Shown piece by piece: positions 3,274 to 64,000 of a stretch of 64,000 bases of DNA (its first letter is position 1; every line of letters starts with the position of its first letter). The DNA is from Bacteroidales bacterium (lineage in GTDB: Bacteria; Bacteroidota; Bacteroidia; Bacteroidales; UBA1402). The notes under the pieces were generated by a model that saw only the letters and a program-made list of their open reading frames with translations, ran no database searches and had not been told where the DNA came from. The stretch lies in the NCBI GenBank assembly GCA_017468435.1, contig JAFUIP010000004.1:18668-82667 (forward strand). The letters run 5' to 3'. A program made the translations under genes and the position numbers.

Positions 3274-3358
3274 GGAGGGATGGCAGAGTGGTCGATTGCG
3301 GCGGTCTTGAAAACCGTTGACCTGAGAGGGTCCGGGGGTTCGAATCCCTCTTCCTCCG
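3274..3358 (+). tRNA. tRNA-Ser (anticodon UGA), class II with long variable arm
   Basis: Acceptor GGAGGGA/TTCCTCC, anticodon stem GCGGT/ACCGT with loop CTTGAAA (TGA), long variable arm, T-arm GGGGG-TTCGAAT-CCCTC, discriminator G. CCA is not encoded. Confidence 0.9.
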
Positions 3359-59856: not shown

Positions 59857-60630
59857 TCACTGAATCTTACGACGAATATCTGTCAAGAAAGCTTTCATTG
59901 CCTCAGCATCCTTATTGGAGATTATTTCCAACAAACGTTTCAGCTCCAGACGAATGTTTTCCACCTGGCCCGGCGTGCGCGGATTGAAGAGAATTTCCTG
60001 CAATAGATAATCGTCTTCGCTAAGCAAACCTTTGGCAATGCCCATGTGCTTTTTGAAAGTGGTTCCCGGCGCCTCCTGATGCTTCATCACCGCCGAAAAC
60101 ACCAAGGTGGAAACAAAAGGGATAGACAAGGAATAGGCCACGGTTTCGTCGTGCTCGTCGAAGGTATATTCAAAGATATTCAGGTGCATACTCTGGTAGA
60201 AATCCTTGAAAAACACCTTGCCCAGATGGTCGCCCTCGCTGATGATGATGGCATTTTCGCTGCTCAGATTGTTGAGCGAAGCAAAGGTCGGGCCAAACAT
60301 GGGGTGCGTCGAAACAAAGCGGAATCCACTCTTCTCGTAAAAATCTTTCAAACCCGTTTTCACAGAAGCAATATCGCTGATAATGCAATCTTTAGGAAGA
60401 TATGGCAAAACTTTTTCGAAGGCCTCCAAGGTATATTTCACCGTCACCGCATTGATAAGCAATTCAGGACGGAAATCGCGAATTTCTTCGAGCGTGGTAA
60501 AACGATAGGTATTGTACACAAAACGAAGGCGTTGCGCATCCACATCATAAACGGCGGTCTCGTGCTGAAAGCTCAAGGCATCGCAAAGGAAAGAGCCCAT
60601 TTTGCCGGCACCCATAATCAGAATTCTCAT
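59857..60630 (-). CDS. tyrA: Prephenate dehydrogenase
   Basis: Rossmann GAGKMGSF, SVK...HPMFGP. Confidence 0.88.
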   Translation of the reverse strand: MRILIMGAGKMGSFLCDALSFQHETAVYDVDAQRLRFVYNTYRFTTLEEIRDFRPELLINAVTVKYTLEAFEKVLPYLPKDCIISDIASVKTGLKDFYEKSGFRFVSTHPMFGPTFASLNNLSSENAIIISEGDHLGKVFFKDFYQSMHLNIFEYTFDEHDETVAYSLSIPFVSTLVFSAVMKHQEAPGTTFKKHMGIAKGLLSEDDYLLQEILFNPRTPGQVENIRLELKRLLEIISNKDAEAMKAFLTDIRRKIQ

Positions 60631-60642
60631 GACAAAACTTGT

Positions 60643-61704
60643 TTATTGGTTAATGATTTCCATTTGTTGACGCACACTTTCTTCGTGGATAGCCTCGAAA
60701 ACTTTTTTGATAAACGCCTGATCCATACCGCAAAGCGCACCCTGAGCACCACGTTTGTCAAGAATTTCGTTGTAACGGCCGGTTTGCAGAATGTTCACGC
60801 CATGTTCCTTTTTGTAGGTACCGATTTCGCGGCACACGCGCATACGCTTGGCCAAGAGCTGGATCAGATCGTTGTCGCATTCGTCGATTTGCTTGCGCAG
60901 TTCGTTCAGACTCTCGGTAGTGTGAGTATCTTTTCTGATAACCAAAAGGTTGAGAATGTAGTCGAGCACGTCGGGCGTGATTTGTTGCGAAGCATCGCTC
61001 CAGGCGGCATCCGGGTTGCAATGGCTCTCGATGATCAATCCATCAAAGCCAAGGTCCATAGCCTGCTGACTGAGCGAAGCAATGAGTTCGCGCTTGCCGC
61101 CAATATGGCTGGGATCGCAGAAAATAGGCAAGTTAGGAATACGACGACGCAATTCGATGGGAATATGCCATTGCGGCAGATTGCGGTACAGTTTCTTGTC
61201 GAAAGAGCTAAAGCCACGATGAATGGCGGCGATGCGCTTCAAACCCGCATTGTTGATACGTTCCATGGCGCCTATCCAAAGTTCCAAGTCGGGATTCACG
61301 GGATTTTTCACCAAGACGGGAATATCCACGCCCTTCAAAGCATCGGCAATTTCCTGCATGGCAAATGGATTGGCCGTGGTACGCGCCCCTATCCACATGA
61401 TATCGATGCCCGCCTTCAGACATTCATAGACATGCTTGGCCGTTGCCACTTCGGTAGCCACATACATACCGGTTTCCTTCTTGACATTCTTCAGCCAGGG
61501 CAAAGCATCCACCCCCACACCTTCGAATCCGCCGGGCTTGGTTCTCGGCTTCCACACGCCGGCGCGGAAAATCTTCACTCCTCTTTCGGCCAATTGCTTG
61601 GCTGTATTCATCACCTGTTCTTCTGTTTCTGCGCTGCAAGGTCCGGCAATCACCAAAGGACGCTTATCTTCCATTTCGGGCAGCAAAATTGATTCGAGTT
61701 CCAT
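60643..61704 (-). CDS. aroF: Bifunctional 3-deoxy-7-phosphoheptulonate (DAHP) synthase / chorismate mutase type II
   Basis: Class I-beta DAHPS/KDO8PS-like barrel (IAGPCSAE, GARTT, DPSH) fused to a C-terminal CM2 helix bundle (LRKQIDECDNDLIQLLAKRMRV). Confidence 0.9.
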   Translation of the reverse strand: MELESILLPEMEDKRPLVIAGPCSAETEEQVMNTAKQLAERGVKIFRAGVWKPRTKPGGFEGVGVDALPWLKNVKKETGMYVATEVATAKHVYECLKAGIDIMWIGARTTANPFAMQEIADALKGVDIPVLVKNPVNPDLELWIGAMERINNAGLKRIAAIHRGFSSFDKKLYRNLPQWHIPIELRRRIPNLPIFCDPSHIGGKRELIASLSQQAMDLGFDGLIIESHCNPDAAWSDASQQITPDVLDYILNLLVIRKDTHTTESLNELRKQIDECDNDLIQLLAKRMRVCREIGTYKKEHGVNILQTGRYNEILDKRGAQGALCGMDQAFIKKVFEAIHEESVRQQMEIINQ

Positions 61705-61764
61705 ATTCTTATTATATTGTTTTAATTACTATTGACATTTCATTTCCTATTGTCCTGTATCCCT

Positions 61765-62946
61765 TTATCGGCTTGCCAGCATTTTGATTCGTTCCAATGC
61801 CTGCTTGAGTTTTTCGGTTTTGCAACAAAGGGAAATGCGGATATAACGCGCGCCATTGCTACCAAAGATAAAGCCGGGAACGATAAACACGCGGGCTTCG
61901 TGCAAGACCTTTTCCGTCAGTTCTTCCACATTTTCATAGCTTTCGGGAATTCGGCCCCAGAGGAACATGCCCGCCTGCGAAGCATCGAAACGGCAACCCA
62001 GTACCTGCATGATTTCTTCCGCAATGAGGCGACGTTCGCGATAATTGGCATTGTTGCCGTCGTACCAATCTTTTTCGGCTTCGAGCGCCGTGACGGCAGC
62101 CAACTGAGTGGCACGGAACATTCCGCTGTCTATATTGCTTTTCACTTTCAGAATCCATTGCACAAACTCCGCATTGGAGGCCAACATTCCGATACGCCAA
62201 CCGGGCATGTTGTGGCTCTTGCTCATGGAGTTAAATTCAATGCAACAATCTTTAGCTCCGGGCACGCTCAAAATACTCAGCGGATGGTCGTTCAAAATAA
62301 AACTGTAAGGATTATCGTTGACGATGACGATGTTTTTGCGACGGGCCAAAGCCACCAATTTCTCGTACACTTCCATAGAAGCCTGAGCGCCCGTGGGCAT
62401 ATTGGGATAATTCGTCCACATCAGTTTGACGCGGCTCATGTCCATGGCTTCGAGCGCTTCAAAATCGGGCATCCAGCCATTTTCTTCCTTCAAATCGTAA
62501 TAGACAACCTCGGCGCCCAAAATCTTGCTCAAAGAGGTGTAAGTAGGATAACCCGGATTGGGTACCAAAACTTGTTCGCCCGGATTGACAAAAGCCAGCG
62601 TCACGTGCAGAATACCTTCCTTAGAACCGATGAGCGGCTGAATTTCCTTGGCCGCATCCAGCTCCACGCCATACCATTTTTTATACCAGGAAGCAAAGGC
62701 TTCACGCAACTGAGGAATGCCCACATAAGGCATATAACCGTGTCCGTCAGGATTCTGCGCCTCTCGACAAAGCGTCTCTATGGTAGCTTGCGAGGGCGGC
62801 ATGTCCGGGCTTCCTATACCCAGGCTGATCACATCTTTTCCGGCGGCGTTCATGGCTGCCACTTCCTTCAACTTACGCGAAAAATAATATTCGCTCACGG
62901 CCGACAATCGTTCTGCCGGCATCATCTTATAAACCTGATTTTGCAT
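61765..62946 (-). CDS. Class I/II PLP aminotransferase (aromatic/prephenate aminotransferase candidate)
   Basis: NPGYPTY and SMSKSHNMPGWRIG (PLP Lys). Alternative starts at 62925 or 62922 would remove the overlap with pheA. Confidence 0.85.
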   Translation of the reverse strand: MQNQVYKMMPAERLSAVSEYYFSRKLKEVAAMNAAGKDVISLGIGSPDMPPSQATIETLCREAQNPDGHGYMPYVGIPQLREAFASWYKKWYGVELDAAKEIQPLIGSKEGILHVTLAFVNPGEQVLVPNPGYPTYTSLSKILGAEVVYYDLKEENGWMPDFEALEAMDMSRVKLMWTNYPNMPTGAQASMEVYEKLVALARRKNIVIVNDNPYSFILNDHPLSILSVPGAKDCCIEFNSMSKSHNMPGWRIGMLASNAEFVQWILKVKSNIDSGMFRATQLAAVTALEAEKDWYDGNNANYRERRLIAEEIMQVLGCRFDASQAGMFLWGRIPESYENVEELTEKVLHEARVFIVPGFIFGSNGARYIRISLCCKTEKLKQALERIKMLASR

Positions 62947-63775
62947 CTTCGTATTCTCCTAAAATTTTCAACTCCTTGGTTAATGGGCCAATGGCCACGA
63001 TAGACTGTTTATATCTCAACAAATCATCAAAAACGACATCCACATAAAACTGATATTCCCATTCGCGGCCTATGATAGGCAATGACTGGATTTTGGTCAG
63101 ATTGATGCGATAGAACGACAAGATGGAAAGCACTTGTGAAAGGCTGCCTTCTTCGTGAGGCAAAGTAAACACCATGCTCGACTTATCTACCTCGGTGCGA
63201 CGTTGACGGCGGATATCATCGGCTTGCCAGGCATCGGCCACCACCAAAAATCGGGTGAAATTATGTTTGTTGGTTTCAATGCCTTCTTGCAAAACTTTCA
63301 TGCCATACATCTTGGCTGCGGCTGCCGAACAGATGGCCGCATGGCCCCTCAAAACCTGTTTGCTTATCATCTCCGCACTGAGGGCCGTATCCTCGGCTTC
63401 CACCACCTTTATCTGCGCGTGCTGCGAGAGAAACTGACGACACTGCATCAGGGCAATGGGATGCGAATGTACTTCCTTGATATCTTGCCAATCGTCCTGA
63501 GGCAAACACACCATGCAATGCGAAATGCGCAACTTATGTTCGCCCACAATCTCCACCCCGCTCTGACGCAAGAGTTCGTAATTGTGCAACAAGCTGCCCG
63601 CAATGGTGTTCTCGATGGCCAACATGCCTATAACCGAACTGTCTTCGGCCATTGCCCTGAAAACATCTTCGAAGGTGCTGCAACAAATCAGTTCAATATC
63701 TTCGTTCTCGAAAAATTCGTGGGCGGCAATATCGTGGTACGAGCCCAACACGCCTTGTATCGCTATTTTTTTCAT
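62927..63775 (-). CDS. pheA: Prephenate dehydratase
   Basis: MKKIAIQGVLGSYHD, the TRF motif (NFTRFLVV) and a C-terminal ACT domain. The start is at ATG 63773-63775; the 27 upstream codons on the track encode a terminator hairpin and U-tract. Confidence 0.9.
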   Translation of the reverse strand: MKKIAIQGVLGSYHDIAAHEFFENEDIELICCSTFEDVFRAMAEDSSVIGMLAIENTIAGSLLHNYELLRQSGVEIVGEHKLRISHCMVCLPQDDWQDIKEVHSHPIALMQCRQFLSQHAQIKVVEAEDTALSAEMISKQVLRGHAAICSAAAAKMYGMKVLQEGIETNKHNFTRFLVVADAWQADDIRRQRRTEVDKSSMVFTLPHEEGSLSQVLSILSFYRINLTKIQSLPIIGREWEYQFYVDVVFDDLLRYKQSIVAIGPLTKELKILGEYEDAKSGL

Positions 63776-63786
63776 CCCAATGACTA

Positions 63787-63821
63787 ATAAAAAAACCCGC
63801 TTGCCAATATCGGAGCGGGTT
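63787..63821 (-). terminator. Intrinsic terminator (attenuator) 12-18 nt upstream of the pheA start codon
   Basis: Minus strand reads AACCCGCT-CCGATATTGGCA-AGCGGGTT-TTTTTATT: an 8-bp stem with 6 GC pairs, followed by a U-tract. Confidence 0.7.
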
Positions 63822-63874
63822 TCATATAAAACTATACAAAAATAATCATCAATCATTGCATACCAAAACTCGCT

Positions 63875-63919
63875 CTACTTTACGGCTAAAGTAAAAGTAA
63901 AAAAAGAAATAATATGCAT
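63875..63919 (-). CDS. Candidate 14-aa Phe-rich leader peptide MHIISFFTFTLAVK
   Basis: Hand translation: ATG CAT ATT ATT TCT TTT TTT ACT TTT ACT TTA GCC GTA AAG TAG. The stop codon abuts a segment able to pair with the terminator 5' arm. Confidence 0.45.
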   Translation of the reverse strand: MHIISFFTFTLAVK

Positions 63920-64000
63920 AAGTAAATACGTTCATCGCTTCAATGTCGTTTTTTAGACAATGCCTTTTGTTTCGACGCCGCAAATCTTTTCGAGACCGCA

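Follow-up and report, generated by a model that had tools for sequence, protein, structure and literature searches.

At the far end of the stretch of Bacteroidales DNA analysed here (64,000 nucleotides (nt) of contig JAFUIP010000004.1, referred to below as the window), a minus-strand operon of pheA, an aminotransferase gene, aroF/CM and tyrA is preceded by a short leader, and the question is by what mechanism, and in response to which amino acids, this leader would control the operon. A first-pass annotation made from the letters alone had proposed leader-peptide attenuation through a 14-codon open reading frame (ORF) sensing phenylalanine. The core of that idea stands, as do its terminator, formed by segments 3 and 4 of the leader RNA, and its antiterminator, formed by segments 2 and 3; the ORF, its frame, its specificity and the geometry of its stop codon do not. 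Based on comparison with related leaders, we believe that the element is a classical ribosome-mediated (leader-peptide) transcription attenuator of the pheA operon that senses charged tRNA-Phe and tRNA-Tyr, with a probability of roughly 85%.

The conserved reading frame is not the one first proposed. It encodes MNVFTYAYYFFFYFYFSRKVERVLVCND, runs from an ATG at 63935 to a TGA at 63851-63849, and holds 6 Phe and 5 Tyr codons (ATG AAC GTA TTT ACT TAT GCA TAT TAT TTC TTT TTT TAC TTT TAC TTT AGC CGT AAA GTA GAG CGA GTT TTG GTA TGC AAT GAT TGA). The Phe/Tyr run within it is the sole site in the six frames of the window with at least 8 Phe/Tyr codons in 12, and 20000 shuffles of the leader with matched composition never gave 10 in 12. 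The 16 nt before the leader start codon are 60-76% A, and an A-rich region in this place fits the Shine-Dalgarno-independent initiation of Bacteroidota.

Named Bacteroides and Mediterranea homologues of PheA are 77-81% identical to the protein of the window and by this similarity place it in the Bacteroidaceae. We took the 80 best genome loci by PheA homology and read the sequence upstream of pheA in each. All 80 have a homologous leader, and in 73 of them its ORF is complete, has 26-31 codons and follows the consensus MKSFTYAYYFFFYFYFSHKVEREFVCIK; six of the other seven are interrupted by a contig end inside the leader and the last, L055, starts with GTG. When 71 Bacteroidaceae leaders were aligned (alignment A2), the ATG of the 28-codon frame was kept in every one, gaps inside the ORF were 3, 6 or 9 columns wide, so that every indel is a multiple of 3, and variability at codon positions 1, 2 and 3 was 0.064, 0.059 and 0.121, the third position varying about twice as much as the others. 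Within the aromatic run, codons alternate between TTT and TTC, TAT and TAC, or TTT and TAT, and each such change is either silent or exchanges Phe and Tyr. Codons 19-26 are invariant at all three positions in this family, and the peptide KVEREFVC is nearly invariant; equal invariance at all positions suggests that the RNA rather than the peptide is under constraint there. Three contigs (L081, L083 and L085) that encode PheA proteins 99%, 85% and 87% identical to that of the window represent its own lineage, and the 28-codon ORF is shared within this lineage, as MNVFSFAYYFSFYFYFSHKVERALVCIE in L083 and MNVFSFAYYFFFYFYFGHKVERALVCIN in L085.

A second family extends the comparison. With the PheA representative P0121, which is 58% identical to the PheA of the window and whose named relatives are Fermentimonas, Proteiniphilum and Petrimonas (Dysgonomonadaceae), we retrieved 80 metagenome loci (L086-L165) and aligned 61 leaders (alignment A3). 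Their leader ORF has 18 codons with the consensus [M/V]NNSVFAFSF[W/G/Y/F]FYFYFSR, its start codons (ATG in 41, GTG in 17, TTG in 3) all fall at one position, and its stop codons, which may be TAA, TAG or TGA, likewise share one position. One Trp codon (TGG) lies inside the Phe/Tyr run in 25 of the 61, where the others have Gly, Tyr, Phe or Arg, which hints that some lineages of this type may also sense Trp. Start codons that are kept or swapped, indels in multiples of 3, the excess of third-position changes in Bacteroidaceae and the A-rich upstream region together favour translation of the leader ORF. Judged by its conservation, the ORF at 63935-63849 is the predicted sensor, not the 14-codon ORF, and the regulatory codons are, on the same comparative grounds, those for Phe and Tyr together, not Phe alone as the first-pass annotation had it. 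The operon itself, whose content was borne out by Pfam, encodes the synthesis of both Phe and Tyr, in agreement with a leader of 6 Phe and 5 Tyr codons.

The RNA anatomy agrees with the first-pass annotation in its two central helices. The terminator occupies 63823-63789 of the minus strand, where the hairpin AAACCCGCTCC/GGCAAGCGGGTTT (AAACCCGCUCC-GAUAUU-GGCAAGCGGGUUU) leads into a U7 tract, with 13 nt left between this tract and the ATG of pheA. The antiterminator pairs GAGCGAGTTTT (63875-63865) with GAAACCCGCTC (63823-63813) at 10 of 11 positions, as had been claimed, with 9 Watson-Crick pairs, one G-U pair and one A.C mismatch. Searches of the single sequence were less telling: a simple terminator consensus scan missed the hairpin because of a 2-nt bulge, and a strict complement search for the terminator arm with one mismatch allowed did not recover segment 2, which has one mismatch and one G-U pair, so that single-sequence statistics for the 2:3 pairing are weak and the support for it is comparative. 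That support is found in both alignments. Among the 71 Bacteroidaceae leaders, 96.2% of the cells of the terminator are paired and 5 pairs have changed on both sides, while the antiterminator (GAGCGGGA:UCCCGCUC) is 99.5% paired, with a G-C to A-U change in 13 sequences and two further compensated pairs; none of 500 shuffles reached the observed antiterminator values and slid controls were 26-51% paired. Among the 61 Dysgonomonadaceae leaders, the antiterminator is 94.6% paired, with an A-U to G-C change in 8 sequences, and the terminator is 98.4% paired, with 3 pairs changed on both sides. The core of the stem differs between the families in all three segments (CGGGA/UCCCG in Bacteroidaceae, CAGGA/UCCUG in Dysgonomonadaceae). 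Within the lineage of the window, the antiterminator and both terminator arms change together: the window has the antiterminator GAGCGAGUUU with the 5' arm AAACCCGCUC and the 3' arm AGCGGGUUU, L083 has GAGCGAGCUU with AGGCCCGCUC and GCGGGCUU, L085 has GAGCGAGCUU with the 5' arm AAGCCCGCUC, and T or C at 63868 covaries with A or G in the terminator arm. The predicted terminator and antiterminator are conserved and covarying in 71 and 61 leaders, far beyond chance.

A third helix pairs segment 1, which lies in the Phe/Tyr codons, with segment 2. In the Bacteroidaceae alignment this 1:2 helix (UUUUACUUU:AAAGUAGAG) is 99.5% paired, either repeat of segment 1 is able to pair with AAAGUAGAG, and RNAalifold, unprompted, returns exactly the 1:2 hairpin and the terminator. 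In the window, a predicted outer helix between UGCAUAUUA (63918-63910) and UGGUAUGCA (63865-63857) would enclose the 1:2 helix and sequester all of segment 2 before segment 3 is transcribed.

Two further structures were seen in these leaders. Most Bacteroides leaders (L001-L063) have an extra hairpin, GUAUC-AAGUGACAGU-GAUGC (alignment A2 columns 86-93 with 105-112), that holds the leader stop codon in its loop and shows A-U to G-C covariation in 12-13 sequences; it is missing from Phocaeicola-type leaders and from the window, and for this reason we rejected it as a core part of the mechanism. A 12-bp helix in the window, AAUGAUUGAUGA with UUAUUAGUCAUU (minus strand, 63847-63858 with 63779-63790), has the terminator inside it and takes up the bases immediately 5' of the pheA AUG. 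In L081, a G-to-A change turns one of its G-U pairs into A-U, and the helix was not found in L083 or L085; it could be an added translational lock or due to chance.

The position of the stop codon relative to segment 2 differs among these leaders. In the window the leader ORF runs through segment 2 and stops 14 nt past it, so the stop codon fused to segment 2 that had been proposed does not apply to its lineage. An abutting stop is found only in Dysgonomonadaceae, where it adjoins the antiterminator strand GGCAGGAUUUU, which pairs with the terminator arm AAARUCCUGYC, and in two distant lineages. These come from a sample of seven more remote PheA representatives, with a single locus each; three of the loci have a Phe/Tyr-rich leader with a terminator: L171 (PheA 53% identical) with MTRFSGSYFYYFYFNHIDD, L173 (47%) with MLASNYNFYFFAFYYFFGVPERGD, and L172 (47%) with a weaker leader. 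No leader was found in the other four loci examined (L170, L166 from a Rikenellaceae metagenome-assembled genome, L168 and L174). The stop precedes segment 2 in Dysgonomonadaceae, L171 and L172, and the ORF passes through segment 2 in Bacteroidaceae, the window and L173. We propose tentatively, at somewhat less than even odds, that the pheA-tyrA leader of Bacteroidales is an uncatalogued attenuator of several families that reads Phe and Tyr and sometimes Trp, and that in Bacteroidaceae its ORF has been extended by 10 codons through the antiterminator, so that a translating ribosome, not one parked at the stop codon, would block it.

Transcription of the leader appears to start from a promoter of the Bacteroides type. 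Of 151 related loci, 150 have a TAnnTTTG box, the -7 element, ahead of the leader ORF; its modal distance from the start codon is 28 nt, and a TTTG precedes it by 18-22 nt. This spacing gives a 5' untranslated region (5' UTR) of about 23 nt, which is the modal 5' UTR length of Bacteroides thetaiotaomicron mRNAs (PMC7366714). L083 has TTTG-N19-TAATTTTG 48 nt before the leader ATG, and AAGATTTG is its positional homologue in the window, where the promoter is probable by homology. As had been proposed, no promoter lies between the terminator and pheA: none of 146 loci has a -7 box (TAnnTTTG) in this gap, whose median length is 21 nt, so all transcription of pheA must pass the terminator. Two observations concern the DNA around the promoter. 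Ahead of its leader, L085 (positions 262-306) has two tandem copies of the promoter-proximal stretch TTTTGCCGCGT (TAATTTTGCCGCGTTGAAACAGTTTTGCCGCGTCG), by which the -7-box region is locally duplicated. L081, an independent metagenome contig of 1361 bp, starts at the exact base where the window ends (64000), which points to an assembly break common to both, perhaps at a repeat, immediately upstream of the promoter. The coordinates of all features are collected in Table 1.

Table 1. Features of the pheA leader and the operon that follows it in the window.
Feature	Positions	Strand	Evidence or remark
Probable -7 promoter box, AAGATTTG	63981-63988	minus	5 of 6 specified positions of Bacteroides TAnnTTTG
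Leader ORF, 28 codons and TGA, encoding MNVFTYAYYFFFYFYFSRKVERVLVCND	63849-63935	minus	conserved frame
Regulatory codon run, codons 6-16 (Y A Y Y F F F Y F Y F)	63888-63920	minus	10 of 11 are Phe or Tyr
5' domain of nascent leader (predicted)	63857-63918	minus	ViennaRNA, -18.2 kcal/mol; also in the minimum free energy fold of the whole leader
Segment 1, UUUUACUUUUACUUU (codons 12-16), 5' strand of anti-antiterminator	63888-63902	minus	RNAalifold and window folds
Segment 2, AAAGUAGAGCGAGUUUU	63865-63881	minus	5' part pairs with segment 1; 63875-63865 pairs with segment 3
Segment 3, GAAACCCGCUCC, terminator 5' arm and antiterminator partner	63812-63823	minus	covariation, folding
Segment 4, GGCAAGCGGGUUU, terminator 3' arm into U7 tract (63795-63789)	63789-63805	minus	folding, covariation
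Internal promoter-like motif, TTTG-N19-TATTTTTG	63837-63867	minus	full consensus match; probably fortuitous
pheA (prephenate dehydratase)	62927-63775	minus	PF00800, E = 1.2e-56
Class I/II aminotransferase	61765-62946	minus	Pfam; operon member
DAHP synthase fused to chorismate mutase (aroF/CM)	60643-61704	minus	Pfam; operon member
Prephenate dehydrogenase TyrA	59857-60630	minus	Pfam; operon member

The true start of pheA is the ATG at 63775 (MKKIAIQG), and tblastn matches in relatives begin at residue 1 of this protein; the rest of the regulated operon spans 59857-62946 on the minus strand. Upstream of this start, the pheA frame meets no stop codon as far back as an ATG at 63856, on the far side of the terminator, which makes an ORF of 309 amino acids (62927-63856, minus strand), and public gene calls have such extended starts, with 309 amino acids in P0001, 300 in P0003 and 299 in many others. 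These N-terminal extensions are very likely annotation errors, since the conserved start is MKKIAIQG at 63775. At the other end of the operon, tgt (queuine tRNA-ribosyltransferase, PF01702; 58679-59812, minus strand) follows tyrA by 44 nt, with no recognisable terminator in the gap. Queuosine modifies tRNA-Tyr among other tRNAs, and tgt adjoins an operon whose leader is rich in Tyr codons.

A codon-enriched short ORF, a terminator with no later promoter, and an antiterminator that excludes the terminator and covaries with it are among the marks by which an attenuator is recognised, and these three are found here. What is observed is the anatomy of the leader, its reading frame and conservation, covariation in the alternative helices and where the promoter motif lies; from these we infer translation of the ORF, stalling of the ribosome, coupling of transcription to translation and a response to amino acids. 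Transcription would start at the Bacteroides-type promoter near the window edge, and the nascent RNA would fold into its 5' domain, in which the Phe/Tyr codons UUUUACUUUUACUUU of segment 1 pair with AAAGUAGAG and sequester segment 2. A ribosome would initiate at the AUG at 63935. With Phe and Tyr plentiful, it would run through segment 2 to the UGA at 63851-63849; segment 2, covered by the ribosome or paired again with segment 1, would leave segments 3 and 4 to pair, and their hairpin with the U7 tract would end transcription 13 nt before pheA. The absence of translation would likewise leave the terminator to form. With either amino acid scarce, the ribosome would stall in codons 6-16, melt the 5' domain and leave GAGCGAGUUUU free to pair with GAAACCCGCUC once this is transcribed, so that no terminator would form and RNA polymerase would enter the operon.

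Folding energies from ViennaRNA agree with parts of this scheme. The whole leader of the window folds at -41.9 kcal/mol (z = -4.9 against shuffles), the terminator hairpin at -15.7 kcal/mol and the 2:3 duplex at -12.5 kcal/mol; equilibrium folding of the window lineage does not reproduce the switch. The minimal 1:2 hairpin alone is weak in the window (-6.9 kcal/mol). When the ribosome was modelled as a ribosome-sized mask on the RNA during folding, the leader of Bacteroides xylanisolvens and a Dysgonomonadaceae leader folded as 1:2 with segment 3 free when no ribosome was present, and as 2:3 with the mask on the Phe/Tyr codons.

Several points weigh against an attenuator of this kind. In the window, the transcript without segment 4 prefers 2:3 at equilibrium in the absence of a ribosome (-22.8 against -19.4 kcal/mol); with 2:3 more stable once segment 3 exists, default termination in this lineage would have to be kinetic and co-transcriptional or depend on a ribosome crossing segment 2, and a ribosome parked at the UGA, given a standard footprint, would reach no further than the final bases of segment 2. 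The antiterminator of the window has the A.C mismatch, which is conserved in its lineage, and the 1:2 helix is without covariation support because the segment 1 strand never varies. The -7 box of the window is imperfect and its -33 TTTG would fall beyond the window edge. The Dysgonomonadaceae set shows weak periodicity over the codon positions (0.129, 0.189 and 0.200). The case for the attenuator is also comparative throughout, and the mechanism would need a close coupling of transcription and translation in Bacteroidota.

Other explanations of the same leader have to be weighed against these points. All the sequence features listed in the first-pass annotation are present where it placed them, including its 14-codon ORF MHIISFFTFTLAVK (63919-63875, with ATG at 63919-63917 and TAG at 63877-63875), which it took for a Phe-only sensor whose stop would park the ribosome directly on segment 2. 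The TAG does abut GAGCGAGUUUU, and in Dysgonomonadaceae the ORF of the conserved frame actually ends right at segment 2, but the MHIISFFTFTLAVK ATG is present in just 19 of 71 Bacteroidaceae leaders, the full arrangement of ATG, FFTF and stop in only 17 of 71, and in Dysgonomonadaceae this open frame lacks a start codon. In L083 and L085, the closest relatives of differing sequence, the start triplet is TTG and FF has become LF or SF, and the T/C changes that are synonymous in the Phe/Tyr frame turn Phe into Ser in this one. We regard it as an out-of-frame shadow of the conserved ORF that does not exceed chance, and as a sensor it is hardly credible. A promoter inside the leader, TTTG-N19-TATTTTTG, was the alternative that the annotation itself had offered, and it would drive pheA and make the upstream ORF irrelevant or secondary. 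The motif fits the Bacteroides promoter consensus in full, and the 64-kb window has 5 such matches against 1.49 expected in shuffles, but the T-rich region favours chance matches and the motif is not conserved: it is absent at the corresponding position from 70 Bacteroidaceae leaders, has a 24-nt spacer in L083 and is missing in L085. A transcript from about 63831 would still meet the complete terminator, would have no antiterminator, and so would mostly end at 63789, which leaves this promoter an unlikely driver of the operon.

The switch might instead be set by a trans-acting factor, such as an RNA-binding protein, an uncharged tRNA or a small ligand, with the short ORF incidental. Many Gram-positive bacteria control aromatic amino-acid genes by such systems (TRAP, T-box), and the leader has weak sub-threshold Rfam matches to PyrR and other leaders. 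These are all far below gathering scores and driven by the terminator, the leader has no conserved core resembling a T-box or riboswitch, and the features that are conserved are those of a translated ORF (start swaps, a fixed stop, indels in multiples of three, and Phe/Tyr codons kept while their neighbours drift), which makes such a factor decidedly unlikely. It is also conceivable that the ORF encodes a functional hydrophobic micro-protein and that the hairpin is only a leaky terminator or an element of RNA stability, given that the peptide is conserved and its C-terminal KVEREFVC nearly invariant in Bacteroidaceae. What this leader preserves, however, is its Phe/Tyr codons as such and its ability to pair with the terminator arm; the equal invariance of all three codon positions in the C-terminal part points to RNA rather than protein, this part is missing altogether from the 18-codon Dysgonomonadaceae ORFs, and the N-terminus and the length of the ORF vary, so we consider a micro-protein most improbable.

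In function, this attenuator has the design of E. coli pheL-pheA (Rfam Phe_leader, RF01859): the gene is the same, a short ORF packed with Phe codons precedes it, the 1:2, 2:3 and 3:4 helices are exclusive, and a terminator lies before the gene. Homology is not detectable, however, at 20.8 bits for the window against a gathering score of 55 and 16.6 bits for L046 (B. xylanisolvens) on the leader strand. Unlike pheL, the leader of the window combines codons for Phe with codons for Tyr, and the operon behind it serves Tyr synthesis as well; E. coli regulates tyrA-aroF apart from pheA, through TyrR. It further differs from pheL in an ORF of 28 codons that reads through the antiterminator strand, a TAnnTTTG promoter, and an A-rich leader with no Shine-Dalgarno sequence. 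The E. coli trp leader (Trp_leader, RF00513), the textbook four-segment attenuator, is the best sub-threshold Rfam match (23.2 bits against 41, terminator only), but it has two Trp codons, a stop before segment 2 and a 1:2 helix much stronger relative to 2:3, and is not homologous. The aroR leader upstream of aroF in Corynebacterium glutamicum, reportedly described by Neshat et al. in 2014, is said to be an attenuator with codons for more than one aromatic amino acid, in another phylum, before another gene and with no sequence relationship to the leader of the window.

Rfam scans of the window leader, the canonical Bacteroides leader (L046) and the whole window returned no leader family at gathering score, and the sub-threshold matches were driven by the terminator; the only match above gathering score in the whole window is an 85-nt tRNA (3274-3358, plus strand). 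The nearest precedent in the phylum is the Bacteroid-trp motif (RF01692), a predicted cis-regulatory leader of the trp operon in Bacteroidetes (Weinberg et al. 2010, PMC2864571). Like the leader studied here, it precedes an aromatic amino-acid operon and is a prediction, and it is the catalogued Bacteroidetes precedent for leader-peptide attenuation; it differs in operon and sequence, with no match in the window leader or L046 even at E up to 10. Searches of full-text literature found no description of a leader of this type or of the peptide string FFFYFYF, and a pheA leader from Bacteroides may be listed in two older in-silico surveys of attenuators (Vitreschak 2004; Lopatovskaya 2010). The B. 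thetaiotaomicron transcriptome paper makes only the general remark that short ORFs resembling those of leader peptides occur in some long 5' UTRs (PMC7366714), and its supplements have no match for the leader peptide or prephenate dehydratase.

Comparison strongly supports this leader as a widely conserved and uncatalogued regulatory RNA, very likely real, and as a testable sign of transcription-translation coupling in Bacteroidota. Leader-peptide attenuation is documented mainly from Proteobacteria and Actinobacteria; according to a 2010 survey it had not been shown outside these groups (PMC2965389), and in Bacteroidetes only the predicted Bacteroid-trp motif has been catalogued so far. The finding would supply a candidate for a new Rfam family and correct gene calls that run pheA through the terminator, and the attenuator would explain how a single leader controls one operon for two amino acids. 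If it is true, a phylum with its own promoter type and without initiation led by Shine-Dalgarno sequences still couples the first ribosome to RNA polymerase closely enough for attenuation. The two positions of the stop codon, before and after the antiterminator strand, provide a natural experiment in which the effect of ribosome position on the switch can be followed, and a deeply conserved Phe/Tyr attenuator in Bacteroides would give a compact natural read-out of coupling and of aromatic amino-acid status in dominant gut bacteria.

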